Assembly (NCBI GenBank): GCA_949292335.1
Contig: CASEYY010000016.1
Coordinates: 16,922 to 80,921, forward strand
Direction of reading: 5' to 3'
DNA: 64,000 bases
Source of the DNA: an uncultured Pseudomonadota bacterium
GTDB taxonomy: Bacteria; Pseudomonadota; Alphaproteobacteria; RF32; CAG-239
The translations under genes and the position numbers were made by a program. Within the stretch, counting starts at the first letter, position 1. Each line of letters opens with the position of its first letter. Shown here piece by piece: positions 33,080 through 52,370 of this stretch. The notes under the pieces are model-generated. The model had not been told where the DNA came from, searched no databases, and saw only the letters and a program-made list of their open reading frames with translations.

Positions 33080-33539
33080 CGGTGACCATGAATATTACTT
33101 CACCGACCAAATCTTCTATGGTTTTGAAGTCTTTGGTGTTTGCCATAGAATCACCGTCTTGCAACAGAGTGGTTTCATGACCGGGGTCTATCTTTATGAA
33201 TTTGTTGCCTATTAATCCGTCGGCTACAATCGAAGCAACACTGTCTGTCGGGAGTTTTATTTCCGGAGATATGCTCATAACAACATTTGCGGTATAATCG
33301 GTGTCATCGAGTTTTTGGCTTACCACCGTACCGATTTTGATACCGTTGATGCGAACATCCGAACCGACATTCAATCCTCCGACTTTTAGAAATTTGGCAG
33401 TTATGTTATAGCCTTTGACAACTTGTAAATCCGATACATTATAGGCAAAATAACAAAATAAAGCCGCTACGGTCAAAACAAGTATACCCATAATTGTTTC
33501 AACAGGTCTTTTATACATAAAAAAGTCAGTCTTTGCCAT
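33066..33539 (-). CDS. mlaD: MlaD-like MCE-domain protein (paralogue 2)
   Basis: N-terminal TM plus an MCE fold block (GLNVGSDVRINGIKIGTV ... ADGLIGNKFIKIDPG). Confidence 0.75.
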   Translation of the reverse strand: MAKTDFFMYKRPVETIMGILVLTVAALFCYFAYNVSDLQVVKGYNITAKFLKVGGLNVGSDVRINGIKIGTVVSQKLDDTDYTANVVMSISPEIKLPTDSVASIVADGLIGNKFIKIDPGHETTLLQDGDSMANTKDFKTIEDLVGEVIFMVTGDEQ

Positions 33540-34077
33540 TGTTTAGTGTCTCCTTTTTACTTTGTCTTTTGGCTTTTCCTATACCGATAATCCGCTCTAT
33601 TAATTCCTCAATAATCATTGCATCTTGCGTGTATGAAAATTCTCCGCCGGGAGCAATCATATCTTCGGAACCGCCAGGTTCAATCTCTATATATTTGGCT
33701 CCCATCACGGCCGAACTGACAATAGCCGCAGAGCTGTCGTCGGGAAGTTGTATTTTATCGTTTATTTCAAGGGTCATTATAGCCTTAAAGTCGCCATCGA
33801 GTCTGGCCCCCACGACTCTGCCGATATCCATGCCGGCTAATCTCACGGCATCACCGACCATAAGACCGTCGGTACGATTGAATCTGGCATAAATCTGATA
33901 GTAACTGCCGCCGCCTTTGTGTGTAATCTCGTCACGCGAAAATAAAACGGCAAAAAATGCCACTAAAATTACCAAAAGTACGGAAAAACCGACTTTTAAG
34001 TTCTTGGCTTCTTCTTTGTTGTAGAGCTCTAGTACCTTCATCTTATTAATATTCCGTATTAATACAAATCTCGTCAA
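33526..34077 (-). CDS. mlaD: MlaD-like MCE-domain protein (paralogue 1)
   Basis: N-terminal TM plus GLMVGDAVRLAGMDIGRV ... SSAVMGAKYIEIEPG. It overlaps paralogue 2 by 14 nt. Confidence 0.75.
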   Translation of the reverse strand: MTRFVLIRNINKMKVLELYNKEEAKNLKVGFSVLLVILVAFFAVLFSRDEITHKGGGSYYQIYARFNRTDGLMVGDAVRLAGMDIGRVVGARLDGDFKAIMTLEINDKIQLPDDSSAAIVSSAVMGAKYIEIEPGGSEDMIAPGGEFSYTQDAMIIEELIERIIGIGKAKRQSKKETLNNGKD

Positions 34078-34192: not shown

Positions 34193-34903
34193 ATGTTAAA
34201 AGTGCGTGGTTTATATAAATCACTGGAAAACAATAAAATATTGCATGATATAACTTTTAGTCTGCAAAAAAATCAAATCACGGCCTTGCTTGGGGTTAAC
34301 GGTGCCGGAAAAACAACTTTGATGCGTTGTATAGCGGGTGTATACGAGCCAGATGCCGGTAGTGTATGTTTTGCCGGTACTTCTATCAAAAAAGACCGAA
34401 AAAAATATCTGCAAAATATTGCCTATGTGCCGGAGTGGGGTGGGTTATATCCGGATATGACCGTATTTGAATATTTAATATTTATTGCCAAACTTAACGG
34501 CGGTTGCGATAAAAAATTATTGGCTGAAACAATATCTGCTTTGGAATTGGAATCGGTTATTGATAAAAAATGTGCGGCACTTTCAAAAGGATATAAAAAA
34601 AGAACCGCTTTGGCGGCGGCTTTGCTTAAAAAACCAAAGCTCCTAATCTTGGACGAGCCTACCGAGGGTTTGGATCCTAAACAGAAAATCGTTTTGCGGA
34701 AATTGCTTAAAAAATATGCCGAAAATAACGCGATTCTGATATCGACTCATATAATGGAAGAAGTGTCAGCTTTGGCTTCACATATCCTGATAATAAATAA
34801 AGGACAAATTATTTGCGATGCTCCGTTGTCAGATGTCGAAAAGACCATTCCCGACGGAAATTTCGAGTTGTTGTTTTATAATCTTGACGGAGATAAACAT
34901 TGA
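34193..34903 (+). CDS. ABC transporter ATP-binding protein (ABC-2/GldA-like)
   Basis: GVNGAGKTT Walker A, LSKGYKKR signature-like motif, LLILDEPTEGLD Walker B. Confidence 0.85.
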   Translation: MLKVRGLYKSLENNKILHDITFSLQKNQITALLGVNGAGKTTLMRCIAGVYEPDAGSVCFAGTSIKKDRKKYLQNIAYVPEWGGLYPDMTVFEYLIFIAKLNGGCDKKLLAETISALELESVIDKKCAALSKGYKKRTALAAALLKKPKLLILDEPTEGLDPKQKIVLRKLLKKYAENNAILISTHIMEEVSALASHILIINKGQIICDAPLSDVEKTIPDGNFELLFYNLDGDKH

Positions 34904-35646
34904 GAGATTTTGTCGATAACTTAACAGTCTTTTTTTGCAAAGAATTTAAATCATTTTTTCAAAATAAAATGATTTATGTGTTGTTGCCGATATATCTGAT
35001 TATAAGTTTTGCTTTTACATTGTATTTTTCTACTTTTATGACGGTGGCAAATCCCGCTATGCAACAATTCTTTTTGCTGCAACCGAAAATTTTTCTGATT
35101 ATTGTACCGGCTCTGACTATGAGATTGTGGGTGGAAGAATATAAAAATAACACCTGGGAAATTTTATTGTCTCAGCCGATATCCTTAACTGCGGCTGTAA
35201 TCGGAAAATTTTTGGCCGTTTGGGCCATTACCGGTGTTATGTTATTGTCATCTTGCGGATTGTGGATAATTTCGGCTGGCTTTATCGGATGTGATAATAT
35301 CTTTGTGCTTGCGAATTATTTGATGACCTTTCTTATAATCGGAATTATGTGTGCGGTAAGTGCTTGGGCTGCTGCTTTGTGTTTTAACTATGTAGGAGCT
35401 TTTTTGTTGTCTTGGGCTTTTTTGGCCATATTGTTTGCCGTTAATTTCGATAATTACATTAATGATGTTTTGATGGTATTTGTTGATAACTTTAATGCAA
35501 AAACTTTTTCCGATTTTGCCGAAATATCGACAAGTTTGGTCAGCGGAGAGATAAAGGCTGCTTTCGTCTTTTATGCCTGTGCCGTTATGGCGGCGGCATT
35601 ATGGGCAAATGTTGAAGCCGTCGAATATAAAAGGAGCGAAAAATAA
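34900..35646 (+). CDS. ABC-2-type permease (GldF-like)
   Basis: 248 aa, six hydrophobic segments. TTG start overlapping the ATPase stop. Confidence 0.7.
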   Translation: MRDFVDNLTVFFCKEFKSFFQNKMIYVLLPIYLIISFAFTLYFSTFMTVANPAMQQFFLLQPKIFLIIVPALTMRLWVEEYKNNTWEILLSQPISLTAAVIGKFLAVWAITGVMLLSSCGLWIISAGFIGCDNIFVLANYLMTFLIIGIMCAVSAWAAALCFNYVGAFLLSWAFLAILFAVNFDNYINDVLMVFVDNFNAKTFSDFAEISTSLVSGEIKAAFVFYACAVMAAALWANVEAVEYKRSEK

Positions 35647-37520
35647 TGCTCAAATGGTCAGAAAAATTAATTATGCTCATGTTTATAATCGGGATTGTTA
35701 TCGTTTCGGTTACCGCAGGTGTAATCGGAAATTTGCTGTTTGACGCGAAAGGTATTGATGTTACTGCAGATAGGGTTTATTCTCTTTCTGAACAAACAAA
35801 AGAATTTCTGGATAAAAATACTCAAAATTTGTTTATAAGAATTTACGCCGCAGAAGATTTGGCGGTCAAAGATGTAAGATGGAAAATTTATCTGGCCAGG
35901 ATTATTAAATTGGCAGAGGACTATGAAAAAGAAGGACACGGCAAAGTTAAATTTTCTTTCGTTAAGATAAAGCCGTTTGCAGATACTCAGGCCGAGGCCG
36001 AAAAAGCAGGAATTAAAGAATTCTTGTATCCTAACGGAGAAAAGTATGCCTATTTCGGAATGGTGTTGGCTAATGAAAACGGAAAGTTGATTACAATCCC
36101 AAAGTTTAGGTTTGATGACTTCAATTATATTGAAAATTTAATTACCAGAAATTTATCGCAACTAACCGTAAACAATAATAAAAATATTGCCGTTATCTCT
36201 CCTTTTTTTGATGCGGTTACCAAATACACTTATTTCGGAATGTCCGGTGAGTGGCCTTTTGCCGACAGGCTCAGAAAAAGCGGATATAACCTGATTGCAC
36301 TTGATAATATATCAGGCGGAATAAATCCTAATTTTGATGCCGTAATCGTTTTTTATCCGTTATCATTGGATAGTTTGACTGTCTATGCTCTGGATCAATA
36401 TCTGATGCGTGGCGGAAAAATCATAGTACTTCTGGACGCTTTTTCCGAAAACAGATTTGCCGATGAAGATGAATTTGAATATATAAGTTATGTGAGCGGA
36501 ATGGATAAATTTTTAGAAAATTCGGGCATAAGGTATTCTTCAAATTTAGTGGTCGGGGATAATGAAAATAATCGAGATGCCGTACTTGACGGCAGAAAAA
36601 TTAAATATCCGCTGCGGGTCGTCGTGACGAAAGAAAATCTTACTTCTCATAAAATTACCGAAAATATTAAATCTCTGCGGCTTAATCACAGTGGTTTCTT
36701 TAAGTATGAGTCAAAGCCGGATCTGGATACAAAAGTACTGTTTACAACCTCTGAAAACAGCGGGGTTTTGCCGGCGGAAAAAATCAGCTCCATTGATTAT
36801 AACACATTGTTTGAACATTACAAACAAACTCAACAAAAATATCCGTTAGCCGTGTTGGTAGAAGGTAAATTTTCGTCAATGTTTGATGCCCCGATCATTG
36901 ATACTCCGGAAATAATTGCAAAAAATTTACCGTTTCTGAGCGTGCCGTTGAAAGAAGGAAAATTGTTGGTAGTTGCCGACAGTGATATGCTGGGTGAAAG
37001 TCTATGGAATGCAAATCATGCAAAAAATCATGATATATACGGAGATGTATTTGTCTCCGATAATTTGCAGCTTTTATTAAATGCTCTTGATTATATGACT
37101 TCGGCTGATTATGTGTCGGTACCGCTTAAACAAGCAGCCGGATATCAGGAAAATTGGCAAAATTTATTGCAGGAAAAAGCCGAGAAAAAATTTGCCGAGG
37201 CAAAAAATAATTACGGAAAAAAATTATTGTCGGCACAACGCAAATTATCAGCGTTAAACAATGAAATGAAATTTGCCGAATTAAGCTCGGTGAAAAGAAT
37301 TAAAGAAATCGAGCAACTGCAACGAGATATTGAACGATATAAAAATAATCTGGAAAAAATCAATTATGATATTGAAAAGGAATATAACAGATTATTTCTT
37401 CTCTTTGCCGTTGCGTTGATAGCGGTGACACCGGTTTTAATAACTCTGCTGTTGGCCGGAATGTTCGGATTGTATAATAAAAAATTACTTAAAAAAGCTA
37501 GGGAGTACGGTAATGAATAA
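35646..37520 (+). CDS. GldG-like ABC-transporter auxiliary protein
   Basis: 624 aa with N- and C-terminal TM anchors and a large periplasmic domain, placed after the ATPase and permease. This matches the GldG family architecture. TAATG coupling. Confidence 0.65.
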   Translation: MLKWSEKLIMLMFIIGIVIVSVTAGVIGNLLFDAKGIDVTADRVYSLSEQTKEFLDKNTQNLFIRIYAAEDLAVKDVRWKIYLARIIKLAEDYEKEGHGKVKFSFVKIKPFADTQAEAEKAGIKEFLYPNGEKYAYFGMVLANENGKLITIPKFRFDDFNYIENLITRNLSQLTVNNNKNIAVISPFFDAVTKYTYFGMSGEWPFADRLRKSGYNLIALDNISGGINPNFDAVIVFYPLSLDSLTVYALDQYLMRGGKIIVLLDAFSENRFADEDEFEYISYVSGMDKFLENSGIRYSSNLVVGDNENNRDAVLDGRKIKYPLRVVVTKENLTSHKITENIKSLRLNHSGFFKYESKPDLDTKVLFTTSENSGVLPAEKISSIDYNTLFEHYKQTQQKYPLAVLVEGKFSSMFDAPIIDTPEIIAKNLPFLSVPLKEGKLLVVADSDMLGESLWNANHAKNHDIYGDVFVSDNLQLLLNALDYMTSADYVSVPLKQAAGYQENWQNLLQEKAEKKFAEAKNNYGKKLLSAQRKLSALNNEMKFAELSSVKRIKEIEQLQRDIERYKNNLEKINYDIEKEYNRLFLLFAVALIAVTPVLITLLLAGMFGLYNKKLLKKAREYGNE

Positions 37521-38469
37521 AAAAAATTGGTGGGCTTTATCCGTAATAATACTTACTTTCTTGCTGACAGTCACAGCGGCAATATGGTATGAGCAAAAAG
37601 ACAGTGCCAATAATTTGCAAGGTAAATTGGTATTTGCCAAAACTTATAACGATGGTAGCAGAGTTAATAAAATTGTTATTTCATCAAAAGACGGATATGT
37701 TATTCTAAAGCAAGAAAACAGCTATTGGTTGTTGGAAAACGGCGGAATGTATTTTGCTGATTTTAGGTTGATACATTCTTTGTTATCAACAGTAAATCAG
37801 AGCATCTATATGATGAAAATTCCTTATGATGCACAAAAACTCAGTAAATATCTTTTACATAATCCCGAAAAGCAAAAAGAAAACAGTGGGGTACTGATTA
37901 AAACTTATGTCGATGAAAAAATATTGGATGAAATCATTATCGGCAGAGAGGCAGACACGAAAAAATATTTTTATGTTATGAATCCTAAAAATAAAGATAT
38001 TTGGCTGGCCGACGGTAATTTTAATTTGCCGCTTAAACCTGAGGAATGGTTGCTCAATCCGGTCTTGTCGGTGCCTAAAAACGCAGTTGAAAGTGTTACC
38101 ATTGCGAAAAGTTATGTGCAACGAGAAAAACAAGCTGCTTACTTTTTTAATGAAAAAGGAAACAGAGTTTTTGTTGAACCGCTTTTGAATATTTTATATG
38201 CTTTGAATATCGTCAGTGCCGAAAAACAAAAGCCCGAAGACGAGCCCGCACGAGTAATTGATGTGATAACTTTTTACGGTTTGGAGTATATTATAAAATT
38301 GTATAACAAAGACAATAAAATCTGGGCAAAGATTGATTTGACAACAACTTCTTTGCCGAAGTCTCAAGTAAAAGAATATATTAATGAAAACAGTTTTCTT
38401 TACGAGGGATGGTTGTTTGAAATTGCACCTGGGCAGGCTCATGTGCTGCGGGATTTTAAACTGGAATAA
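37513..38469 (+). CDS. DUF4340-like membrane-anchored protein
   Basis: 318 aa with an N-terminal TM. It overlaps the gldG-like gene by 8 nt, and the position after GldG matches the usual GldAFG-DUF4340 arrangement. Assignment is by context only. Confidence 0.5.
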   Translation: MNKKNWWALSVIILTFLLTVTAAIWYEQKDSANNLQGKLVFAKTYNDGSRVNKIVISSKDGYVILKQENSYWLLENGGMYFADFRLIHSLLSTVNQSIYMMKIPYDAQKLSKYLLHNPEKQKENSGVLIKTYVDEKILDEIIIGREADTKKYFYVMNPKNKDIWLADGNFNLPLKPEEWLLNPVLSVPKNAVESVTIAKSYVQREKQAAYFFNEKGNRVFVEPLLNILYALNIVSAEKQKPEDEPARVIDVITFYGLEYIIKLYNKDNKIWAKIDLTTTSLPKSQVKEYINENSFLYEGWLFEIAPGQAHVLRDFKLE

Positions 38470-40309: not shown

Positions 40310-40361
40310 ATATGCCTAAGGTTTGCCAATGGTGGTAAACCTTATTTTAATAATTGGACGG

Positions 40362-40367
40362 TATAAT
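40362..40367 (+). promoter_or_regulatory. Candidate -10 box (TATAAT) upstream of adhE
   Basis: Perfect TATAAT 45 nt upstream of the adhE ATG, but the -35 is weak. It is preceded by an aaggttt...aaacctt hairpin (40327-40355). Confidence 0.3.
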
Positions 40368-40411
40368 GCAAAATTGTGGTAATTTTTTATAAACAGGAAA
40401 GGTCTGTAGCA

Positions 40412-43006
40412 ATGACAAATAAATCAGTCAAAACAGCTAAAGATTTGGAAGCCTTGATTAAAAAAGTCAAAGAAGCTCAAAAGGTTTTTGCAACTTTTGA
40501 TCAAGAAACCGTAAATAAAATCTTTAAGGCTGCCGCAACCGCTGCCGATATGGCTCGTATTCCTTTGGCTAAAATGGCCGTTGAGGATACCGGTATGGGC
40601 GTAGTGGAAGATAAAATAATCAAAAACCATTTTGCCGCGGAATATATCTATAATAAATATAAAAATGAAAAAACCTGCGGAATTATTAAATCTGATAAGA
40701 CCAACGGTGTAAAAATCGTGGGCGAGCCTTTGGGCGTTATTGCCGGTGTGGTTCCTACAACCAATCCGACTTCTACAGCTATATTTAAGTCTTTAATCTG
40801 CTTAAAAACCAGAAATGCAATCATCTTTTCTCCGCATCCGAGAGCTAAAAAATCAACTATCGAAGCGGCTAAGGTAGTCTATGAAGCTGCTGTTAAAGCC
40901 GGTGCTCCGGAAAATATTATCGGATGGATTGATGAGCCTTCAATCGAATTGACCGATTTATTGATGACACATCCCGATATTCACGGTATCCTTGCTACCG
41001 GCGGTCCGGGAATGGTCAAAGCCGCATATTCTTCCGGCAAGCCGGCGTTGGGAGTCGGGGCAGGTAATGTACCGGCAATTATTGATGAGACCGCCGATGT
41101 CGAAATGGCCGTTTCTTATATTTTGATGTCAAAAACTTTTGATAACGGTATGATATGTGCCTCCGAACAGTCGGTCATTGCCTTGAAACCGGTATATGAA
41201 AAAGTTAAAAAAGAATTCGTATTCAGAGGAGCATATTTGCTTAATCAGAAAGAAGCCGAAAAATTATCTAAAATAATTTTGACACCCAAAGGTGTTAATC
41301 CGGAAATAGTTGGGCAGCCGGCGGTTAAAATCGCAAAAATGGCCGGAATTAATGTGCCGGATCATACTAAAATCCTTTTGGCCGAACAGACGGTTATTGA
41401 TGTGGCAAATCCGTATGCTCATGAAAAATTATCTCCTATTTTATCTTTGTATCAGGCAGATGATTTTGAAACGGCTGTCGAGAAAGCTTTGCACTTGGTC
41501 GAGTTGGGCGGTATGGGACATACTTCGGTGTTGTATACCGATACCAGAAAACAAGACAGAGTGGATTATTTTGCAAAAAAACTTCCGACCGGAAGATTGC
41601 TGATTAACTCTCCGTCTTCTCAAGGCGGTATCGGCGATTTGTTTAACTTTAGACTGGAACCTTCATTAACATTGGGTTGCGGCTCTTGGGGAGGAAACTC
41701 CGTGAGTGAAAATGTCGGAGTTAAACATTTGTTGAATTATAAAACCGTTGCCGAAAGGAGAGAAAATATGTTGTGGTTTAGAGTACCGCCAAAAATTTAT
41801 TTCAAACGCGGGGCAACGGATTTTGCCTTGCGTGAACTGGAAGGTAAAAAAAGAGCTTTCATCGTTACCGATCGTTATTTGTTTGATTCCGGTATGGTTA
41901 ATTCCATAACCAATGTGTTGGAAGAGATGAATATCGAGTATCAAATCTTCTTTGATGTTAAACCAGATCCGACAATCTCCACTATTGAAGAAGCCTTGGT
42001 TATGATCAATGTATTTAAACCGGATGTCTTCATTTCGTTCGGCGGCGGTTCGCCGATGGATGCCGCTAAAATCATGTGGCTTAAATATGAAAGACCGGAT
42101 ATTAAATTTGAAGATATTGCCATGCGGTTTATGGATATCAGAAAACGCATTTGTACAATCGGCGATTTGGGACAAAAAGCAATTATGGTTGCTATTCCCA
42201 CAACATCGGGTACCGGTTCGGAAGTTACTCCGTTTGCGGTTATTACCGATGATGAAAGTCATGTTAAATACGCAATCGCAGACTATGCATTAACTCCGAA
42301 TATGGCAATAGTTGATGCCAACTTTGTTGATAATATGCCTAAAGGTTTAACCTCCGCCGGCGGTATTGATGCTCTTGTGCATGCCATTGAGGCTTATGTT
42401 TCGGTGATGGCTACAAACTTTACCAATTCTGCCGCTTTGGAAGCTGCCAAACAAGTCGTGAGATATTTACCGCGAGCTTATAAAAATGGTGTTAATGACC
42501 CGGTGGCAAGAGAAAAAATGCATCATGCCGCAACTATTGCCGGTATGGCTTTTGCCAATGCTTTCTTAGGCTTATGTCACTCCATGGCTCACAAACTCGG
42601 TGCCGCATTTAATATCCCGCATGGCGTTGCCAATGCACTGCTGATTTGTCAGGTCATTAAATATAATGCCACGGATTGTCCGCGTAAACAGGCAATCTTT
42701 CCGCAATATAAAATGCCGGAGGCTAAAAAAAGATATGCTCAGATTGCCAGCAACTTAAAGCTTAAAGGTAAAACCGATGATGAAAAAGTTGCCGCGTTGA
42801 TTGATGCCATTGTTGAGTTGAAGAAGGAAATTGAAATTCCGGCTTCAATTAAAGAATGGGGCATTTCCAAAAAAGATTTTGAAGCCAAACTTGATTGGTT
42901 GGTGGAAAATGCTTTTGACGATCAATGCACGGGGGCAAATCCGGTATATCCGTTAATGGAAGATATCAGAAAAATTTATATGGATGCTTTTGAAGGTAAA
43001 ATATAA
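40412..43006 (+). CDS. adhE: Bifunctional acetaldehyde-CoA/alcohol dehydrogenase AdhE
   Basis: About 865 aa. The N-terminal ALDH domain has MICASEQS (catalytic Cys). The C-terminal iron-ADH domain has [10 protein letters not shown] and the [10 protein letters not shown] histidines. Start at the ATG at 40412, with an aggaaagg RBS. Confidence 0.95.
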
Positions 43007-43057
43007 ACTGATGTCAAAAAAATAACCCCGTCAATCTTTGCAGAGGAGGGTGAGTTT

Positions 43058-43300
43058 ATGACTAGCAAAATTCAAATTTGTATGGGAAGCTCTTGCTTCG
43101 CTCGCGGTAACAGCAAAAATTTGCAGATTATTACCCAATATCTAAAAGATCATAATTTTGATGCTAAAGTGGAATTATCGGGATTAAGATGCTGTAACCA
43201 GTGTGCCAAAGGTCCTAATCTTACGATTGACGGGGTTGAGTATCATAATGTTGATGCCGGAACTTTGGTTGATATTTTAGATAAAGCTTTTAAGGAGTAA
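43058..43300 (+). CDS. Thioredoxin-like [2Fe-2S] ferredoxin (NuoE/HndA-type fold; HfsA-like position)
   Basis: 80 aa. Cys pattern C-x4-C ... C-x3-C (CMGSSC ... CCNQC). Confidence 0.7.
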   Translation: MTSKIQICMGSSCFARGNSKNLQIITQYLKDHNFDAKVELSGLRCCNQCAKGPNLTIDGVEYHNVDAGTLVDILDKAFKE

Positions 43301-43306
43301 TGTCCG

Positions 43307-45064
43307 ATGTCTAGCCGTGAACATCCTCTTTTTACCATTAAAAATGATTGTCAGGACTGTTATAAGTGTGTGAGAGAATGTCCGGTGAAGGCAATTAAAA
43401 TCGAAGATAATTCCGCTCAAATCGTACCGGAATTGTGCGTGGCCTGCGGTAAATGTTATAAAGTTTGTCCGGTCAGAGCTAAGCAAGACCGCGATGATGT
43501 ACCGCGTGTTAAAAATATGATTACAGCCGGAGAAAAAGTTTATATATCTCTGGCTCCGTCTTGGATTGCCGAGTTTGACAATACCACCAAAGAACAACTT
43601 CTTACGGCAATAAAAAAACTCGGGTTTGCCGGTGTAAGCGAAACCGCTTTGGGAGCAGAGGAAGTATCGACTCATGTGGCCGACTTCTTATCAGATAAAA
43701 AAGAGGGCGTTTTTCTTTCAACTGCTTGTCCGGCATTTGTTGAATACATAAACAAATATATGCCGGATTTAACCGCTGATTTAACTCCGGTGCTTTCGCC
43801 CGTGCTTGCCCATTGTAAGCTGATGCGTGATAAATTGGGGCAAGATATTAAAATTGTTTTTGTCGGTCCCTGTATTGCCAAAAAATTTGAAGCCGATCGT
43901 AATGCCGATTTATTGAACTCAAGTATTTCGTTCAGAGATCTGCGGCGTTGGTTTAGAGAAGCCGGGATTAATTATCATACAATCGAGCCGGAAAAAGAAA
44001 TTGATTTTATATACAAAAGAGCCGAAGAGGGGAGATACTACCCGATAGAAGGCGGTATGATAGAAACAATTAAACCGTACGGTAAAACTAATCATGTTTA
44101 TATGATGCAGTTAACCGGATTGGAAAATATTCAACGGGAATTGTCTGATATTAAAGGTTCAAGACCGGATTATCCGATTTTTATCGAATGTCTGGCTTGT
44201 GAGGGCGGGTGTGTTAACGGACCTTGTACCAGAAGTCACAAATCCGGTTTTGAAAAAAGAGCCAGAGTGCTTAAAGATGCACAGAAGACCAGTATGGCCG
44301 GAAAAAGAACTCCCGAAGAGGACATATCAAAAGATTATCAAGAAAAGCCCGTTGAGAACCACAACTATACCGAAGATCAGATAAAGCGGGTTTTGGCTAT
44401 GCTCGGTAAGTATACGGTTGAAGACGAAATTAACTGTAATGCCTGCGGCTATGATAACTGCCGTAATTTTGCCAAAGCCATATTAGATGGTAAGGCCGAA
44501 ATCGATATGTGTGTATCGCATATTAAACAGCAAGCTCAACGCAAGGCTAATGCTTTGCTTAAATGTATTCCCTCGCCGATTGTTATTGTCAATTCAAAAC
44601 TCTCGATTATTGAGTATAATGATTATTTTGTCAGCGAATTTTGGAATGATGAAGAACATAGTGATATCTACGATAAAAACAACCTTATCGGAGCCAATTT
44701 ACGCGATTTTGTAAGCTTTACCAATTTATTCTCCGCATCGCTTGATTTAGGCGAGGATGTCAAAAGAGAAAATGCCCGCAACAAAAGTAAACTCTACGAT
44801 GTTATGGTGTTTAATATCGAACAAAAACAAGTGGTCGGCGGGGTGATTGAAGATGTTACCAAGGTAGAAATTAAACGCGAAAAAATTGCCGAAAAAGCTA
44901 AAGAAGTTATTGAAAAGAATTTGGCAACCGTTCAACAAATCGCCTGTACTTTGGGTGAGCATATGGCTGAGACCGAAGTATTATTGCGTTCGATTGCCAA
45001 AGATTATGCCGCCGATGATTATGATAAACCAAATGTAACCATTCGCAACAAAAGGGATGATTAA
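43307..45064 (+). CDS. Sensory-type [FeFe]-hydrogenase-like protein with PAS domain (HydS / HfsB-like)
   Basis: Two CxxCxxCxxxCP motifs, then an H-cluster domain with LSTACPAF (Ala in place of the first Cys of TSCCP), VGPCIAKKFE and ECLACEGGCVNGP. Next comes CNACGYDNC-x16-C (Cx2Cx4Cx16C), then a ~150-aa PAS-like C-terminus. Confidence 0.8.
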   Translation: MSSREHPLFTIKNDCQDCYKCVRECPVKAIKIEDNSAQIVPELCVACGKCYKVCPVRAKQDRDDVPRVKNMITAGEKVYISLAPSWIAEFDNTTKEQLLTAIKKLGFAGVSETALGAEEVSTHVADFLSDKKEGVFLSTACPAFVEYINKYMPDLTADLTPVLSPVLAHCKLMRDKLGQDIKIVFVGPCIAKKFEADRNADLLNSSISFRDLRRWFREAGINYHTIEPEKEIDFIYKRAEEGRYYPIEGGMIETIKPYGKTNHVYMMQLTGLENIQRELSDIKGSRPDYPIFIECLACEGGCVNGPCTRSHKSGFEKRARVLKDAQKTSMAGKRTPEEDISKDYQEKPVENHNYTEDQIKRVLAMLGKYTVEDEINCNACGYDNCRNFAKAILDGKAEIDMCVSHIKQQAQRKANALLKCIPSPIVIVNSKLSIIEYNDYFVSEFWNDEEHSDIYDKNNLIGANLRDFVSFTNLFSASLDLGEDVKRENARNKSKLYDVMVFNIEQKQVVGGVIEDVTKVEIKREKIAEKAKEVIEKNLATVQQIACTLGEHMAETEVLLRSIAKDYAADDYDKPNVTIRNKRDD

Positions 45065-45066
45065 AA

Positions 45067-46242
45067 TTGAGCGATTCACTCTTTATTGAAATAGGCTCTT
45101 ATCAGGAACATAAAGCCTCCGAAAGTTGTTTCGGTGATGCTATACTTTCGGAAAAACTACCTGAGGAGCAAAGAATCATCTCTGTGTTATCCGATGGTTT
45201 GGGCAGCGGGGTAAAAGCAAATATCCTTTCATCTATGACCACCAGGATGGCAATGAAATTTGTTGAAAGTGATTTGGATTTGGTGCGTTCGGCCGAGGTT
45301 ATGATGCAGGCTTTGCCGGTGTGCCAAATCAGAAAAATAAGCTATGCGACTTTTTCAATAATTGATGCGACTTTGGAAGGTAAAACCCGCATTTATGAAA
45401 TGGATAATCCGCAATGTTTCGTGGTACGGGATTTCCAACAATACCATCCGGCTCACCATGAAATTTCTTCGGAAAACTGGAAAGACCGCATTATTAATGT
45501 TTATCAGTTTGTAGCCAAAGAAGAGGACAGAATAATCATTATGTCGGACGGAGTGACGCAGGCCGGACTCGGTAATCCTAAATATCCTCTCGGTTGGCAG
45601 AGAGACGGGGTGTGGAAATTTATTGAAAATCAGGTGCGTAGGCATCCGCATATTTCGGCAAAAGATTTGGCCGAAGCTATAGTAAAAGAAGCACTGACTA
45701 AAGAAAAAGACGGTAAGGCCGGAGATGATATCAGTTGTGTGGTGGTATATTACAGAAAGCCTCGCAAATTACTCCTCTTGAGCGGGCCGCCGTTCGATGA
45801 AGAAAAAGACCACGAAATTGCCGAAATGATCGACTATTATGATGGTAAAACCGCAATATGCGGCGGTACAACCGCTAATATAATCGAAAGAGAGCTTTGT
45901 CTTAAATGCGAAATGGATAAAACAAGTTTTGATCCCAATATTCCCATGGCTTCAATAATGCCGGGAATTGACCTCGTCACCGAAGGTATTCTTACTTTGA
46001 CCGAAGTTTATCGTATGCTGAAAGAAGGAATCGACGAGGATAAAGATAATGCGGCAACCAGATTAGCTAAGTTGCTGCTTGATTCCGATAAAATCGATTT
46101 TGTTATCGGAACCAAAATAAATGAAGCCCATCAAGACCCAAATTTACCGATGGAGCTTGACATTCGCCGAAATATTGTTAAAAAGATTTTTAGAATTTTG
46201 CAGAGTAAGTTCTTAAAAGAAATTACGGTAAAATATGTTTAA
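45067..46242 (+). CDS. PP2C/SpoIIE-family serine phosphatase with uncharacterised C-terminal domain (HfsC-like)
   Basis: CFGDA...VLSDGLGSGVKANILS...IIMSDGV...GDDISCVVV are PP2C metal-binding Asp blocks. About 160 extra C-terminal residues are of unknown fold. TTG start 2 nt after the hydS-like stop. Confidence 0.7.
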   Translation: MSDSLFIEIGSYQEHKASESCFGDAILSEKLPEEQRIISVLSDGLGSGVKANILSSMTTRMAMKFVESDLDLVRSAEVMMQALPVCQIRKISYATFSIIDATLEGKTRIYEMDNPQCFVVRDFQQYHPAHHEISSENWKDRIINVYQFVAKEEDRIIIMSDGVTQAGLGNPKYPLGWQRDGVWKFIENQVRRHPHISAKDLAEAIVKEALTKEKDGKAGDDISCVVVYYRKPRKLLLLSGPPFDEEKDHEIAEMIDYYDGKTAICGGTTANIIERELCLKCEMDKTSFDPNIPMASIMPGIDLVTEGILTLTEVYRMLKEGIDEDKDNAATRLAKLLLDSDKIDFVIGTKINEAHQDPNLPMELDIRRNIVKKIFRILQSKFLKEITVKYV

Positions 46243-46265
46243 CCCTTAACAGAAGGATTTGTCCC

Positions 46266-46541
46266 ATGGAAAAAATACAGGTAAAAATCTGTGCCGGAAC
46301 TGCTTGCTTCGTAATGGGAGCTCCGCAAATACAGGCTTTGGAATTTTCTACTCCCGAGGATCTGGCCGATAAAATCGAAGTTACCGAAGTGAGATGTATG
46401 AATCACTGCTCGCAGGGTAAAGGGTATAATAAAGGACCTTTTGTCGAGGTTAACGGTGAGGTTATTGAAGAAGCCACCATGGAAAAAGTAATTACCAAAA
46501 TCAGAGATTTGATTGCCAAAGAGGAAGAAGAAAAGTGTTAA
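46266..46541 (+). CDS. Second thioredoxin-like [2Fe-2S] ferredoxin
   Basis: 91 aa. CAGTAC ... CMNHC (C-x4-C ... C-x3-C). Confidence 0.7.
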   Translation: MEKIQVKICAGTACFVMGAPQIQALEFSTPEDLADKIEVTEVRCMNHCSQGKGYNKGPFVEVNGEVIEEATMEKVITKIRDLIAKEEEEKC

Positions 46542-47986
46542 TACCTAAGAATTATGCCAACCAAATGCGTAGCCGCATCTTGGTTAAAGTTGTTGAAAGC
46601 TTTTATAAAGACAGATTTGAAAGTGCCGATGAGATTCCGATTGAAATGCGGCCGAAAGATTATGATTCAAGTCGTTGCTGTATCTATAAAGACAGAGCAA
46701 TCTTGAAATATCGTATGATGGCGGCAATGGGTTTTACTCCGCAAGAAGAAACCAATGAGGCTAAACAACTAAAGGATTATGGCAAAGAAGCCTTAAAAAG
46801 ACAAAACCATGCCAAGAGCTGTTTGGCGGTGATTGATATTGCTTGCTCGGCTTGCGTAAAATCTCAATATATGGTTACCGATGCTTGCCGCGGTTGTTTT
46901 GCTCGTCCTTGTGTTATGAACTGCCCTAAACAGGCTATTTCAATTATCAACGGTCGTTCGCACATAAATCCTGACCTGTGTGTGTCTTGCGGAAAATGTC
47001 TGGAAGTATGCCCTTATCATGCCGTGGTTAAGTTACCGGTACCTTGTGAAGAGGCTTGTCCGGTAGGAGCCATCCGTAAAGACGAACACGGTGTTGAGCA
47101 TATTAACGAAGAGACTTGTATCTCTTGCGGTAAATGCCTACAGTCTTGCCCGTTCGGAGCAATAGTCGAACGTTCACAACTGGTCGATGTTTTGAATTTA
47201 ATCCATAATACCGATAAAAAGGTTGTGGCCATGTTGGCTCCGGCTGTGGTTGGACAATTTCCGTTTGAAATTAATCAAGTGGTCGGGGCTTTGAAAAAAA
47301 TCGGTTTTGATGATGTGGTAGAAGTTGCCGCCGGTGCCGATGTTACTTCTAAAAATGAAGCCGCAGAGTTTATTGAAAGAATGAAAGAAGGGAAGAGCTT
47401 CATGACGACTTCTTGTTGTCCGGCTTATTACAGAGCTGCCGAAGTTCATATTCCGGAATTGAAACCTTTTGTCTCAAACACCAAAACACCGATGTATTAT
47501 GCCGCGGAAATGCTCAAGAAAGAGCAACCAGATTGCGTATCGGTATTCGTCGGTCCGTGTTTGGCCAAGAGATCGGAAGCCGAATACGATCCGAATGTGG
47601 ATTATGTTCTTACTTTTGAAGAAATCGGTGCAATGTTTGTTGGTGCAGGTGTTGAAATCGGTGATTGCGAACAGGCTCAGTTCGCTAAAGTTTCTTCGGC
47701 TCAAGGTCGTAATTATCCGCTGTCAGGCGGTGTGGCCGGTGCGGTTGGAAATTTGGTCGAAGGTGAAGTTGAATTCCGTCCGGAAAGGATTGACGGTTTG
47801 AGCAAAGAAAATATTAAATTGCTCAAAAAATATGCAACCAAAGGTTCGGAAAACAACATGATTGAAGTTATGTGTTGCGAGGGCGGATGTATTGCAGGCC
47901 CCGGTTGCATTGCCTTGGCTAAAAAAGCGGCTCGTCAGGTTGAAACCTATGTTGCTCAAGGTGTTAATCAAAAGGATATGAAGTAA
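46535..47986 (+). CDS. Catalytic [FeFe]-hydrogenase, group-B-like (HfsD/HydA2-like)
   Basis: Several Fe-S cluster motifs (CSAC..C, CVSCGKCLEVCP, CISCGKCLQSCP). All three H-cluster motifs are intact: TTSCCPAY, VGPCLAKRSE and EVMCCEGGCIAGPG. GTG start overlapping the ferredoxin stop. Confidence 0.85.
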   Translation: MLIPKNYANQMRSRILVKVVESFYKDRFESADEIPIEMRPKDYDSSRCCIYKDRAILKYRMMAAMGFTPQEETNEAKQLKDYGKEALKRQNHAKSCLAVIDIACSACVKSQYMVTDACRGCFARPCVMNCPKQAISIINGRSHINPDLCVSCGKCLEVCPYHAVVKLPVPCEEACPVGAIRKDEHGVEHINEETCISCGKCLQSCPFGAIVERSQLVDVLNLIHNTDKKVVAMLAPAVVGQFPFEINQVVGALKKIGFDDVVEVAAGADVTSKNEAAEFIERMKEGKSFMTTSCCPAYYRAAEVHIPELKPFVSNTKTPMYYAAEMLKKEQPDCVSVFVGPCLAKRSEAEYDPNVDYVLTFEEIGAMFVGAGVEIGDCEQAQFAKVSSAQGRNYPLSGGVAGAVGNLVEGEVEFRPERIDGLSKENIKLLKKYATKGSENNMIEVMCCEGGCIAGPGCIALAKKAARQVETYVAQGVNQKDMK

Positions 47987-48000
47987 GCCTCTTGAGAATC

Positions 48001-48034
48001 AAAAAACTCCTCGTGGAAAAACGAGGAGTTTTTT
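48001..48034. terminator. Bidirectional rho-independent terminator
   Basis: aaaaaactcctcgt-ggaaaa-acgaggagtttttt between the convergent hydA-like gene and proS. Confidence 0.8.
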
Positions 48035-48047
48035 GTCGGTTATAAAC

Positions 48048-49565
48048 CTAGTAACTTCTGGCGTAGATAACATCCATGGTTGCCGGTTTACCGGTCAAAA
48101 GACATTCTCCGGTAGTGCCGGATTGGTTGAAGGGAATGCAACGGATGGTAATCTTCATTTGCTTTAAGATTTCTTCCGTTTTGGGATCTCCGCACCATTT
48201 ACCGCGAACAAATGCAACCTTGCCTTGAGAGTCGTCTTCAATCCATTCGTTGGCATTGGCAAAATATTCGGCAAAGGCTTCTTTATCGGTAATGTCTTCG
48301 CGGATATTGCTCATCAACCTTTTTTGAGCTCTGGTGAACATTTCGTGTTGAATGTTTTCTAAGTATTGAGCAGCTTTGGCAATAAACTCGTCTTTAGACA
48401 CAACCTGTTTGCCTTCGGGAGTGTTGATATAAATTCTTTGACGCAACATCAAGTTGTTGCCTTCAACATCGCGTTTACCAATCTCCAAGATAATCGGAGC
48501 ACCTTTTCTGGTCCATTCCCAGAATTTGTCGATTGAAGATTTGTCTCTCTTGTCTAATTTTATTCTGATTTTTTCACCAAAAGGTGTTTGTTTGGCTAAA
48601 TCAGCTTGTAATTCTTTGATGTAGCTCATTACCAAGTCGCTGTCATCGGGGTTTTTGATTACCGGAACAATTACAATTTGGTAAGGTGCTATTTTGGGAG
48701 GAGTTACCATACCTTCATCATCGGCATGGGTCATAATGACACCTCCGATTAAGCGGGTGGAAACACCCCAAGAGGTCGTATAGGCGTATTCTTGCTTGTT
48801 TTCTTTATTTACAAAAGAAATATTGGCCGACTTGGCAAAATTTTGGCCTAAGAAATGTGAGGTTCCGGCTTGCAGGGCTTTACCGTCTTGCATCATAGCC
48901 TCAACACAATAGGTATCAACTGCTCCGGGGAATTTTTCATGCTCAGGTTTGCGGCCGGTTAATACGGGCATAGCCAAAGTTTGTTCGCACAACTCTTTGT
49001 AGGCATCGAGCATGGTTAAAGTTTCTTCTTCGGCTTCTTTAGCTGTTGAGTGAGCAGTATGTCCTTCTTGCCACAAAAATTCTCTGGTTCTTAAAAATAG
49101 GCGAGGTCTCATTTCCCAACGCACTACATTGGCCCACTGATTAATTAAAACCGGCAAATCGCGATAGGATTTTACCCATTTGGAAAAAGAATCGGCAATA
49201 ATGGCTTCGGAAGTAGGACGAACAATCAAAGGTTCTTCCAATTTGGAAGAGGGGACCAATTTACCGTCTTCCATGGCCAGACGCGAGTGCGTTACAACGG
49301 CCATTTCTTTGGCAAAACCGTCGACATGTTCGGCTTCTTTTTGGAAAAATGAAAGCGGAATAAACATCGGAAAATAGCAATTTTCGTGGTCGGTCGATTT
49401 GATTTTTTCGTCAAATACATCGCGAATTCTTTCCCAAATGCCATATCCCCATGGTTTGATTACCATACATCCCGGAGAAGATGAGTTTTCGGCCATGTCG
49501 GCTTCGGAAACTACATATTGATACCATTCGGGATAGTTGTCTTTTCTTAATTTTTTTAAACTCAT
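48048..49565 (-). CDS. proS: Prolyl-tRNA synthetase, archaeal/eukaryote-like type (no INS editing domain, C-terminal Zn-domain ending in Tyr)
   Basis: 505 aa with FLRTREFLWQEGHTAH and LQAGTSHFLGQNF class II motifs and a C-terminus ...DVIYARSY. Confidence 0.9.
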   Translation of the reverse strand: MSLKKLRKDNYPEWYQYVVSEADMAENSSSPGCMVIKPWGYGIWERIRDVFDEKIKSTDHENCYFPMFIPLSFFQKEAEHVDGFAKEMAVVTHSRLAMEDGKLVPSSKLEEPLIVRPTSEAIIADSFSKWVKSYRDLPVLINQWANVVRWEMRPRLFLRTREFLWQEGHTAHSTAKEAEEETLTMLDAYKELCEQTLAMPVLTGRKPEHEKFPGAVDTYCVEAMMQDGKALQAGTSHFLGQNFAKSANISFVNKENKQEYAYTTSWGVSTRLIGGVIMTHADDEGMVTPPKIAPYQIVIVPVIKNPDDSDLVMSYIKELQADLAKQTPFGEKIRIKLDKRDKSSIDKFWEWTRKGAPIILEIGKRDVEGNNLMLRQRIYINTPEGKQVVSKDEFIAKAAQYLENIQHEMFTRAQKRLMSNIREDITDKEAFAEYFANANEWIEDDSQGKVAFVRGKWCGDPKTEEILKQMKITIRCIPFNQSGTTGECLLTGKPATMDVIYARSY

Positions 49566-50122: not shown

Positions 50123-50662
50123 TTAGAATTGTTCTTGTAATTCAAAGAAGTAAGCTTGCGGGTGATCGCAAACCGGGCATTTGGCCGGTGCAGACGGGGA
50201 TTCTACACGATGTCCGCAGTTGGCACATTCCCAAATAACTTTGGTCGGACGTTCAAAGATTTTGCCTTCTTCCAAAGATTTTAATAATGCTTGATATCTT
50301 TCTTCGTGGCCTTTTTCGATTTTGGCTACTTGCTCAAACAAAAATGCAATCTTGTCAAAACCTTCTTCTTTGGCTTCTCTGGCCATACGAGCGTACATAT
50401 CGGTCCATTCGTAGTTTTCTCCGGCAGCAGCATCTTTTAAGTTGGTCAAGGTTGTGGGAACTTCACCGCCGTGCAACAATTTGAACCAAATTTTGGCGTG
50501 TTCTTTTTCGTTGTTGGCGGTTTGCTCAAATTTATCGGCTATTATGTTGTAGCCTTCTTTTTTGGCTTTGGAAGCATAGTAAGTGTATTTGTTGCGGGCT
50601 TGTGATTCGCCGGCAAAGGCTTCCATCAAGTTTTTTTCGGTCTTTGAACCTTTGAGTTCCAT
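50123..50662 (-). CDS. Rubrerythrin
   Basis: The N-terminus [23 protein letters not shown] belongs to a ferritin-like diiron domain. The C-terminus is a CANCGH...CPVCDHP rubredoxin-like domain. Confidence 0.9.
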
Positions 50663-50680
50663 AAGTTTTCTCCTTTAATG

Positions 50681-51073
50681 TTAGTTGTTTGAGTTTTTTA
50701 GACAGTCGGGGCAAAGTCCGGAAAATGATATTTCCATGTCCTCAACCGTCAAACCTTGTTGCTTTAGAATGCTTTGCTTTATTTCCGGTATGATATTGGT
50801 CTCAATATCGAAAATTTTTAAGCATTTTGAGCAGACAAAATGATAATGCTTTTCGGTGCAATAATCAAAATGCAACACATTATCTATATAATCAAGTTTT
50901 TTTATTATTCCATTTTCCGCTAACTGATTGAGATTGCGATATACGGTCGCAAGGCTTATGTCGGGCAGCTGCTCTTTTACCATGGCAAAAACTTGCTCTG
51001 CCGTTGGATGGCAGGGATTGTTTTGCAAGACCTCCAGTATTAAAGAACGTTGTTTGGAAAATTTCATCTTCAT
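50681..51073 (-). CDS. Fur-family regulator, PerR-like by context
   Basis: 130 aa with a winged-helix block (ISLATVYRNLNQL), HFVCSKC and CPDC zinc motifs. It lies directly upstream of rubrerythrin and divergent from the flavodiiron gene. Confidence 0.8.
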   Translation of the reverse strand: MKMKFSKQRSLILEVLQNNPCHPTAEQVFAMVKEQLPDISLATVYRNLNQLAENGIIKKLDYIDNVLHFDYCTEKHYHFVCSKCLKIFDIETNIIPEIKQSILKQQGLTVEDMEISFSGLCPDCLKNSNN

Positions 51074-51089
51074 TTCCTGTGTATAAAAA

Positions 51090-51104
51090 TGATAATGATT
51101 ATTA
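51090..51104. promoter_or_regulatory. Fur/PerR-type 7-1-7 operator
   Basis: TGATAAT-G-ATTATTA shows one mismatch from the TGATAATnATTATCA inverted repeat. It sits in the divergent perR-like / flavodiiron intergenic region. Confidence 0.55.
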
Positions 51105-51188
51105 GTTTTAGAAAAAATATTTTATCTTGTCAATCAAAATAAAAAGATTATCTTATCAGCAATGACTTAATTTTTGAGGAGAACACAG

Positions 51189-52370
51189 ATGAATGCCGTA
51201 GAAATAAAAAAAGATGTATATTGGGTCGGGGTTAAAGACTGGAATTTGAGAGAATTCCATGGTTATAACACTCCGGACGGTTCAACTTATAACAGCTATT
51301 TAATTATGGATGATAAGATTACTTTGGTCGACGGAGTCAAAGCTTATTTAACGCATGAGCAAATTGCCAGAGTAAAGTCTATGGTCGATTTTTCAAAAAT
51401 ATCTTATGTAGTGGTAAACCACGTTGAACAAGATCACTCAGGCAGTATTCCTGAGATTATGAAACTTGCTCCGCAAGCCGTTATTGTTACCAACTCGGCC
51501 GGTAAAATGGCTTTGGAGGCTCATTTTGATACAACGGGTTGGCAATATCACATTGTTAAAACCGGCGACAGCCTAAATATCGGGAAACGCAATTTGAGCT
51601 TTTTGACAACTCCGATGTTGCACTGGCCGGATTCAATGATGACTTATGTGGCCGAAGATAAATTGTTGTTGCCTAACGACGGGTTTGGTCAACATTTGTG
51701 CTGTGAAGCCTTGTTGGTCAAAGATTATCCGAATGATTTGGTTATGAAAGCGGCAAAAAGTTATTACGCCAATATTTTGCTGCCCTACGGACAACAAGCC
51801 GAAAAAGCTTTGTCAGCGGCCGGTGAAATGAAGCTTGATATTGATATGATTGCACCGTCTCACGGTTTGATTTGGTCCGGAAAAGAAGAAGTTAATCAGA
51901 TACTTGGAGCATATGCTTCTTGGGCTAAGAGTGAGACAACTCATAAGGCCGTTATTGTTTATGATACGATGTGGGGCGCTACCGCAAAATTGGCAGAAAC
52001 CGCTATGGCAGAATTCCAAGATGCCGGTATCAATGTGGTAAAATATAATTTGGGTATTAGCCACATTTCCGATGTTATTACCGATGTGTTGGATGCCGAA
52101 TATGTATTAATCGGTAATCCGACCCTTAATAACCAGATGTTCCCGCGAGTTGCCGCCTTTGTTACTTATATGAAAGGACTGGCTCCTAAGGGTAAGAAAG
52201 GTTTGGCTTTTGGTTCTTACGGATGGCGTCCGGGAGTGGTTAAAGAAATTAAACAAGTTATGGACGATTTGGGCTGGAAAACCGCAGATGTATTCGAAGA
52301 AAAATATACGCCGAAATCTGATGTGTTGAGCCAATTTGCTCAAAGAGTAAAAGAGTTTATCAGCCTTTGA
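51189..52370 (+). CDS. Flavodiiron protein (FprA-type O2/NO reductase)
   Basis: The MBL-like domain has the VVNHVEQDHSGS (HxExDH) diiron motif, and a C-terminal flavodoxin-like domain follows. Start at the ATG at 51189 after a gaggag RBS. Confidence 0.85.
   Translation: MNAVEIKKDVYWVGVKDWNLREFHGYNTPDGSTYNSYLIMDDKITLVDGVKAYLTHEQIARVKSMVDFSKISYVVVNHVEQDHSGSIPEIMKLAPQAVIVTNSAGKMALEAHFDTTGWQYHIVKTGDSLNIGKRNLSFLTTPMLHWPDSMMTYVAEDKLLLPNDGFGQHLCCEALLVKDYPNDLVMKAAKSYYANILLPYGQQAEKALSAAGEMKLDIDMIAPSHGLIWSGKEEVNQILGAYASWAKSETTHKAVIVYDTMWGATAKLAETAMAEFQDAGINVVKYNLGISHISDVITDVLDAEYVLIGNPTLNNQMFPRVAAFVTYMKGLAPKGKKGLAFGSYGWRPGVVKEIKQVMDDLGWKTADVFEEKYTPKSDVLSQFAQRVKEFISL

Follow-up and report, generated by a model that had tools for sequence, protein, structure and literature searches.

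A native six-gene unit linking AdhE, a putative sensory [FeFe]-hydrogenase and a group B [FeFe]-hydrogenase in an uncultured gut or rumen alphaproteobacterium

How might an uncultured gut bacterium adjust ethanol formation to the H2 pressure of its surroundings? The question is raised by six consecutive genes on contig CASEYY010000016.1 of an uncultured Pseudomonadota bacterium, 64,000 nucleotides of which were analysed (the whole stretch is termed the window). They encode a bifunctional acetaldehyde-CoA/alcohol dehydrogenase (AdhE), two [2Fe-2S] ferredoxins (Fdx1 and Fdx2), a HydS-type putative sensory [FeFe]-hydrogenase, a SpoIIE/PP2C Ser/Thr phosphatase and a catalytic [FeFe]-hydrogenase (HydA), the last five being referred to below as the cassette. 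The interpretation that we consider likely is that the six genes constitute a native fermentation module that has orthologues in the HydS/HydA2/AdhE cluster of Ruminococcus albus 7 and in hfs-type clusters and that would be tuned by H2.

The six open reading frames (ORFs) lie on the (+) strand between positions 40412 and 47986 and are separated by 51, 6, 2, 23 and -7 nt (Table 1). An earlier note, made from the letters of the window, had placed six genes of these identities here, and the ORFs together with their Pfam and NCBIfam matches agree with it. AdhE scores 1379.5 bits against NF010378, a curated equivalog with a cutoff of 951, and is a fusion of an aldehyde dehydrogenase with an iron-containing alcohol dehydrogenase (PF00171, PF00465 and PF25137 matched); the form starting at ATG occurs in public sequence collections, where it belongs to a 154-member cluster at 90% identity. 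Fdx1 and Fdx2 both present a C-x4-C...C-x3-C pattern and share 24% identity. Each hydrogenase gene of the unit has one of the two ferredoxin genes just before it, and, irrespective of phylum, almost every related locus has an fdx1 homologue ahead of HydS. HydA scores 541.8 bits against TIGR04105 (group B1 monomeric; cutoff 450) over residues 6-459 of 483. The catalytic motifs TSCCP (residue 292), GPCLAKRSE (340) and EVMCCEGGC (444) are intact and the proton-relay Cys is kept, as expected of the intact catalytic hydrogenase previously proposed, and 19 Cys are present in the N-terminal 230 residues. By these sequence features HydA is a group B catalytic [FeFe]-hydrogenase. In the HydDB nomenclature group B is “colonic-type” and group C3 “phosphatase-linked” (PMC5037454), and group B is now seen as the main H2 producer in the human gut (PMC12578642).

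Table 1. Genes, spacer and transcription signals of the six-gene unit, in window coordinates.
Feature	Position	Strand	Details
Terminator-like hairpin and T-run after msbA	40317..40344	+	12-bp stem, dG -18.3 kcal/mol, z = -3.1
Putative adhE promoter/leader	40361..40382	+	-10-like GTATAAT 40361-40367; TTGTGGTAA 40374-40382
adhE, bifunctional acetaldehyde-CoA/alcohol dehydrogenase	40412..43006	+	864 aa from ATG; NF010378
adhE-fdx1 spacer, 51 nt	43007..43057	+	GAGGAGG ribosome-binding site 43043-43049
fdx1, thioredoxin-like [2Fe-2S] ferredoxin	43058..43300	+	80 aa; PF01257, E 3.6e-9
hydS, HydS-type putative sensory [FeFe]-hydrogenase (group C, phosphatase-linked)	43307..45064	+	585 aa; PF02906, PF04060
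SpoIIE/PP2C Ser/Thr phosphatase with uncharacterised C-terminal domain	45067..46242	+	391 aa; PF07228
fdx2, thioredoxin-like [2Fe-2S] ferredoxin	46266..46541	+	91 aa; PF01257, E 3.5e-7
hydA, group B1 catalytic [FeFe]-hydrogenase	46535..47986	+	483 aa, start codon uncertain; TIGR04105
Bidirectional intrinsic terminator, common to convergent hydA and proS	48000..48034	.	15-bp stem, A-run and T-run flanks

In HydS, two 4Fe-4S motifs are combined with an H-cluster domain (PF02906, E = 1e-47); a four-Cys motif at the C-terminus (PF04060, E = 4.7e-10) is universal among HydS orthologues. Its H-cluster motifs read TACP (L1), GPCIAKK (L2) and ECLACEGGC (L3), with all four H-cluster-ligating Cys present. 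In CpI numbering, Ala occupies the position of C299, where the proton-relay Cys is lost, while Gly and Leu occupy those of M353 and M497, respectively. Among sensory hydrogenases Ala is found at C299 in ~43% and Gly at M353 in ~51% of cases, Thermotoga maritima HydS displaying A131 and G177, and the Ala, the Gly and the non-Met residue at M497 thus match the published sensory signature (PMC10055695). T. maritima HydS and the group C3 enzymes share with the window's protein two [4Fe-4S] clusters, the H-domain, the extra [4Fe-4S] cluster, a PAS domain, the Ala and Gly replacements and an adjacent PP2C gene, which here starts 2 nt past the hydS stop; they differ in presenting a Ser, instead of Leu, at the M497 position.

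The earlier note had called HydS a hydrogenase-PAS protein. In the window's sequence alone the PAS domain is barely detectable (PAS_9, E = 0.11), and it is established at the level of the family only. Among 15 orthologue C-terminal regions, drawn from at least five phyla, PAS_9 was matched in all 15, PAS_8 in 13 (best E = 4.7e-9) and PAS in 12, and the profile of these regions matches the cytoplasmic PAS domains of CitA, Aer2 and DcuS in the Protein Data Bank (E = 6e-4 to 1e-2). A long helix carrying an invariant LGEHMAETE motif follows the PAS domain. An AlphaFold model of HydS, based on 24 homologues of at least 64% identity, had a mean predicted local distance difference test (pLDDT) score of 52, which was too poor for use. 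Architecture, residues at the diagnostic positions and the PP2C neighbour suggest that HydS is a group C (C3, phosphatase-linked) putative sensory hydrogenase.

The phosphatase consists of two domains. Residues ~1-230 constitute the phosphatase domain, which carries invariant metal-binding motifs (DGLGSG, SDG and DD) and presents a Foldseek match to SpoIIE (5mqh, E = 1.8e-5). Residues ~235-391 (45769-46239) form an α/β domain of 157 residues, modelled at a pLDDT of about 70-90, whose motifs CGGTT, G[VI]DLVTEG and VGTxINxAHQDPxLP are kept from Firmicutes to Alphaproteobacteria. This C-domain was observed in 836 representative clusters, almost always C-terminal in ~390-aa proteins and fused to this PP2C, and a Foldseek search with it returned weak α/β matches only (methylglyoxal synthase, E = 1e-2; UbiX). 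As a candidate role, this domain might receive a second input or serve in docking.

Hairpin terminators are found on both sides of the unit. The bidirectional hairpin shared by hydA and proS displays a dG of -23 (+) and -21.5 (-) kcal/mol, with z = -5.6 and -5.3, respectively. It was right to describe this as a strong terminator after the last gene, as the earlier note did, but not as the sole one, a terminator-like hairpin being present between msbA and adhE as well; the latter is kept in relatives with compensatory changes (L085 and L093; L numbers denote the loci compared here). The unit therefore begins with adhE. Between adhE and fdx1 a terminator scan revealed no terminator-like site and the fold of the spacer is insignificant (z = -0.45), which bears out the proposal that adhE is joined to the cassette without an intervening terminator. 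In the msbA-adhE spacer, GTATAAT and TTGTGGTAA are both conserved in three aligned sequences and may serve as promoter and leader elements. The TTGTGGTAA site (consensus TTGTG[GA]T[AG]A) lies ~7 nt downstream of GTATAAT and could be an operator; it was also considered as a Rex box, but no TTCACAA half-site is present and it is not a full one. An Rfam scan of the window identified four tRNAs only; near the operon it revealed neither a riboswitch nor a leader. The six genes are probably co-transcribed, and their promoter would lie shortly after the msbA terminator.

The cluster on plasmid pRUMAL01 of R. albus 7, reportedly described by Zheng et al. in 2014, was retrieved for comparison and reads rex-adhE-phosphotransferase-fdx-fdx-HydS-SpoIIE-HydA2. 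As in the window, adhE lies upstream on the same strand and is followed by [2Fe-2S] ferredoxins, a HydS with C-terminal four-Cys motif and PAS domain, a ~390-aa SpoIIE phosphatase carrying a matching C-terminal domain, and a ferredoxin-type hydrogenase of ~480 aa. Every protein of the window's unit could be aligned with its counterpart from end to end, with 59% identity for AdhE, 32% for HydS and 30% for PP2C (C-terminal domain included), and HydA is 37% (tblastn) or 40% (trimmed alignment) identical to HydA2; the orthology of the cassette to the Firmicute HydS/Hfs-type cluster, already suggested in the earlier note, is thereby upheld. All eight genes of the R. albus cluster, among them a ferredoxin-only hydrogenase, a bifunctional alcohol/aldehyde dehydrogenase, a group C PAS sensor hydrogenase and a Ser/Thr phosphatase, are co-transcribed and expressed at 111-fold lower levels in low-H2 co-culture (Greening et al. 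2019, PMC6776011). Linkage of adhE to a sensor and a hydrogenase, put forward for the window in the earlier note, had thus been described before, co-transcription included. The two clusters also differ. In R. albus a rex gene and a kinase-like phosphotransferase gene are present, neither of which tblastn finds in the window or in the alphaproteobacterial loci; the ferredoxin genes are in tandem before hydS, whereas the window's second one precedes hydA; and motif L1 of HydS is SSCCH instead of TACP. Unlike its R. albus counterpart, the window's unit has a Gram-negative alphaproteobacterial host, a chromosomal location and housekeeping flanks. Monoglobus displays fdx-HydS-SpoIIE-HydA and no adhE.

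The hfsABCD operon of Thermoanaerobacterium saccharolyticum, said to have been reported by Shaw in 2009, is by description similar, with a small Fe-S protein, the HydS-PAS protein HfsB, the Ser phosphatase HfsC and the ferredoxin-linked hydrogenase HfsD. It differs in that adhE is unlinked in T. saccharolyticum and in that the window has an extra ferredoxin gene. In addition, HfsA is said to resemble no known protein (PMC11837493), whereas the first cassette gene of the window encodes a clear [2Fe-2S] ferredoxin; the literature does not call HfsA a [2Fe-2S] ferredoxin, as its designation as ferredoxin-like in the earlier note would imply. Deletion of hfsA or hfsB raises both adhE expression and ethanol yield (Eminoglu 2017, PMC5707799), and upon hfsB deletion hydrogenase activity was increased, not abolished (PMC5707799).

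Homologues of HydS are numerous, with more than 100 cluster representatives at 60-96% identity to the window's protein. At 79% identity (L085-087), genes for a GldAFG-like ABC transporter, a DUF4340 protein, a HATPase and MsbA precede adhE and the cassette, and lpxK, not proS, lies downstream; the exact six-gene order is shared by the close relatives L085, L093 and L171. Loci at 59-64% come from the human gut (L082-084, L088-090, L094-L123), with the five-gene cassette intact elsewhere and no adhE, and some of them are represented on hundreds of contigs. The exact six-gene order is found again at 43-45% HydS identity (L132, L134, L138, L141, L149, L158-160), with AdhE 62-63% identical where full-length, and exact-sequence lookups assigned these loci to Victivallis-like organisms or Lentisphaeria (Lentisphaerota). 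Further cassette-bearing loci belong to Acetobacter sp. CAG:977, Bacteroidales and Deltaproteobacteria.

Trees built by neighbour-joining from the bacterial HydS, PP2C and HydA sequences are congruent. All three place the window within a single gut-alphaproteobacterial clade, with Lentisphaerota, Deltaproteobacteria, Bacteroidales and CAG:977 at 42-51% identity and Firmicutes outermost at 30-40%. From this we conclude that the five genes have evolved together and that, inside the clade, inheritance of the cassette is vertical. With over 100 HydS representatives and congruent trees, the five genes are common and vertically inherited among relatives of this organism, a result which the earlier note had itself named as contrary to its view of the locus. 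Linkage to adhE is patchy: the sublineage of the window has it, as do Lentisphaerota and R. albus. The window's AdhE is 66% identical to unlinked alphaproteobacterial, 63% to linked Lentisphaerota and 59% to R. albus AdhE, differences too small for its origin to be decided by neighbour-joining. In two BRZ gut metagenome-assembled genomes (MAGs; L002 and L006, ProRS 80% identical), an AdhE of 65-66% identity is encoded 5-9 kb from proS with no cassette within 10 kb, and the position of adhE and the presence of the cassette thus vary between sister species.

Other arrangements of the sensor-phosphatase pair were observed. A human gut metagenome contig (L146; UERG01000191.1, 557-8508) carries two convergent cassettes, fdx-hydS-pp2c (+) and hydS-pp2c-fdx-hydA (-), and a rex homologue at its left end. 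Directly upstream of fdx-hydS-PP2C, rex is found in the non-alphaproteobacterial loci L124-L127, L146, L167-L169 and L172. A hydrogenase match lies ~3 kb further downstream in L124, L125, L127, L134, L139 and L147, and the three inspected (L124, L134 and L147) present the group A-type motifs MPCTAKK and GGGQ/GAGQ. The occurrence of rex and of group A-type hydrogenases in some loci indicates that the sensor-phosphatase pair is joined to differing regulators and catalytic partners.

Judging from its R. albus homologue, the operon would most likely constitute a “high-H2 mode” fermentation module. HydA, probably together with the neighbouring [2Fe-2S] ferredoxin, would reoxidise ferredoxin with formation of H2, and AdhE would reoxidise NADH with formation of ethanol. 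Both would be needed jointly at high H2 pressure, when NADH-dependent (bifurcating) H2 formation is unfavourable, and we propose that this explains their co-location and probable co-transcription. HydS would bind H2 at an H-cluster without proton-relay Cys, and its redox state would be relayed, via the C-terminal [4Fe-4S] cluster and the PAS domain, to the adjacent PP2C phosphatase. The latter may then alter the phosphorylation of a target and so tune the expression or the activity of the module.

Several observations weigh against such an H2-tuned module. H2 sensing by any HydS is still putative in the literature (PMC10055695, PMC6776011). The genes hydE, hydF and hydG, PFOR and a bifurcating hydrogenase were not found in the ~85 kb covered (the 64-kb window and ~20 kb of extra contig), nor were hydEFG, PFOR and Rnf in the ~10 kb to the right and ~3.5 kb to the left of the window ends; HydEFG has been reported in related CAG genomes (PMC4967309). 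No kinase, Rex or transcription factor gene was found in the operon or the window. The other points concern adhE. The alphaproteobacterial relatives at 59-64% HydS identity carry the cassette alone, without adhE, and a weak promoter-like match is located at 42975-43002, inside the 3' end of adhE. Moreover, in the Victivallis-like locus L138 (~5545-5610) the adhE-fdx spacer extends to ~160 nt and contains a GC-rich hairpin followed by a T-run, so that linkage of adhE to the cassette need not mean a single transcript; adhE may there be terminated or attenuated separately, unlike in the window.

The last three points are also what would favour adhE and the five-gene cassette as separate transcription units, adjacent by chance in this sublineage and without regulatory link, the cassette being read from a promoter in the 3' end of adhE or in the spacer; in addition, adhE is missing beside the cassette in most alphaproteobacterial relatives, and each of these has an intergenic region of its own upstream of the cassette. 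We regard this arrangement as rather unlikely, since the spacer is just 51 nt and hairpin-free, the adjacency is seen in three phyla (Alphaproteobacteria, Lentisphaerota, Bacillota), the R. albus cluster is co-regulated (PMC6776011) and deletion of hfsB alters adhE expression (PMC5707799). An extended version of the H2-tuned module seems slightly more doubtful still: the six-gene unit would be a self-contained high-H2 fermentation switch, assembled or spread repeatedly in unrelated gut anaerobes (Alphaproteobacteria, Lentisphaerota and Bacillota); in those lineages whose unit has no rex, kinase or transcription factor gene, PP2C would act post-translationally on AdhE and/or HydA and the C-domain would integrate metabolite and H2 signals.

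It is improbable that HydS is joined with the two ferredoxins and HydA in a single catalytic hydrogenase of several subunits, as in the original “Hfs” view, with the HydS-like protein as a second catalytic or an electron-transfer subunit instead of a sensor. HydS does keep all H-cluster ligands and several Fe-S clusters, the H-domains of HydS and HydA share 32% identity, a ferredoxin gene precedes each hydrogenase gene, and the activity of T. maritima HydS is measurable (PMC10055695). However, the proton-relay Cys is replaced by Ala, the PAS domain and the invariant output helix are conserved, the PP2C gene lies between both hydrogenase genes in every locus, and hydrogenase activity rose when hfsB was deleted (PMC5707799).

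That the unit is native is evident from its composition and context. The source sequence is an ENA scaffold of 107.6 kb. GC content is uniform along the window, in tetranucleotide composition the operon differs from the remainder of the window by z = 1.1 (the window's own range being -2.0 to +2.5), and its pooled codon-usage distance from the flanks is 0.053, compared with 0.043-0.069 for flank blocks. An independent Logan assembly holds identical DNA, including the hydA-proS junction; the msbA-adhE-cassette junction is reproduced in the relatives L085-087 and L093 and the cassette-proS junction in L119. The operon DNA is native and the contig is not chimeric, as these results, including the comparison of composition with the flanks called for by the earlier note, make plain. 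A foreign origin of the region, by misbinning, chimeric assembly or transfer from a Firmicute in the very recent past, might be suspected because the cassette family is best known from Firmicutes and because, in a scan of GTDB species representatives with ProRS, the closest (67-85%) lack the operon beside proS. In view of composition, codon usage, independent assemblies, reproduced junctions and the outermost position of the Firmicute homologues (30-40% identity) in all trees, it is so improbable that it was rejected.

The host looks like a reduced gut or rumen alphaproteobacterium, judging from labels and synteny. The species representatives with the nearest ProRS (67-85%) are MAGs whose titles read Alphaproteobacteria or Rickettsiales, and where members of the protein clusters bear a name it is Alphaproteobacteria bacterium or Azospirillum sp. 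A DUF2155 protein and the gene order dusB-trkA-hfq-hflX, which we take to be characteristic of Alphaproteobacteria, are present in the window and contig, and agree with the alphaproteobacterial look of the backbone recognised in the earlier note. The host presumably belongs to the GTDB order RF32. A relative at 64% HydS identity is represented by one contig of 1.89 Mb. Reduced RF32 Alphaproteobacteria of the ruminant gut, of ~1.59 Mb, were described in 2021 (PMC8199421).

Among the genes flanking the unit are those for envelope proteins of the Gram-negative type (MsbA, MlaD, KdsA, PagP, LspA), for glycolytic enzymes and for the oxygen defence of an anaerobe (rubrerythrin, PerR and a flavodiiron protein). 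Upstream of the operon lie two tandem MlaD paralogues (157 and 183 aa) followed by the DUF2155 protein (32414-34077, -), and a GldA/F/G-like ABC transporter with a DUF4340 protein (34193-38469) that are syntenic with L085-087. Downstream, ProRS (48048-49565, -) is of the family I archaeal/eukaryote-like type (TIGR00408, 477 bits); its kin outside the gut clade, at 53-59%, are a mixture of Bdellovibrionota, Sphingomonadaceae, Rhodospirillaceae, Verrucomicrobiota and Planctomycetota, and proS is possibly horizontally mobile and a poor taxonomic marker. Beyond proS, genes of oxygen and NO defence (50123-52370) comprise rubrerythrin and a PerR/Fur-family regulator (-), divergent from a flavodiiron protein (FprA/flavorubredoxin-like). 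An ORF of 1388 aa (56557-60723, +), also present on the Logan and ENA contigs, has no Pfam or NCBIfam match; its N-terminus has hydrophobic segments, and the ~1300 residues behind them contain much Ala, Leu, Lys, Glu and Asn but hardly any Pro, which suggests a membrane-anchored giant coiled-coil protein.

In 2016, [FeFe]-hydrogenases, HydEFG and PFO were reported in gut alphaproteobacterial MAGs and used in an argument on the origin of hydrogenosomes (Degli Esposti, PMC4967309), so that neither H2-evolving gut alphaproteobacteria nor their bearing on hydrogenosomes, both raised in the earlier note, is new. The organisms of that study (Azospirillum sp. CAG:239, CAG:260 and Acetobacter sp. CAG:977) are similar, and their hydrogenase is probably of the same “type A” (group B); sensor, phosphatase, ferredoxins and adhE linkage are not described there (PMC4967309). 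In CAG:977 the type A hydrogenase CCZ21919 lies three genes downstream of the HydS homologue CCZ21916 and is thus part of a sensor-phosphatase cassette, which is 43-51% identical to that of the window and has no adhE or fdx1 match nearby.

What the locus adds is modestly new in three respects: Alphaproteobacteria and Lentisphaerota share the six-gene operon in identical form, the “type A” hydrogenase belongs to a cassette, and the phosphatase has a C-domain that is conserved but uncharacterised. The “type A” hydrogenase of the 2016 hydrogenosome-origin argument sits within a sensor-phosphatase cassette; since the nearest relatives outside the clade span several bacterial phyla at similar distances, the locus opens the mitochondrion/hydrogenosome question in no new way. 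A putative H2-sensing circuit discussed mainly for Clostridia and Thermotoga is extended to abundant uncultured Alphaproteobacteria of the gut and rumen, and to Lentisphaerota. With the adjacency recurring in three phyla, a functional link between AdhE and HydS gains independent comparative support, and this link bears on methane mitigation and on models of how fermentation in gut and rumen is partitioned between H2 and ethanol.

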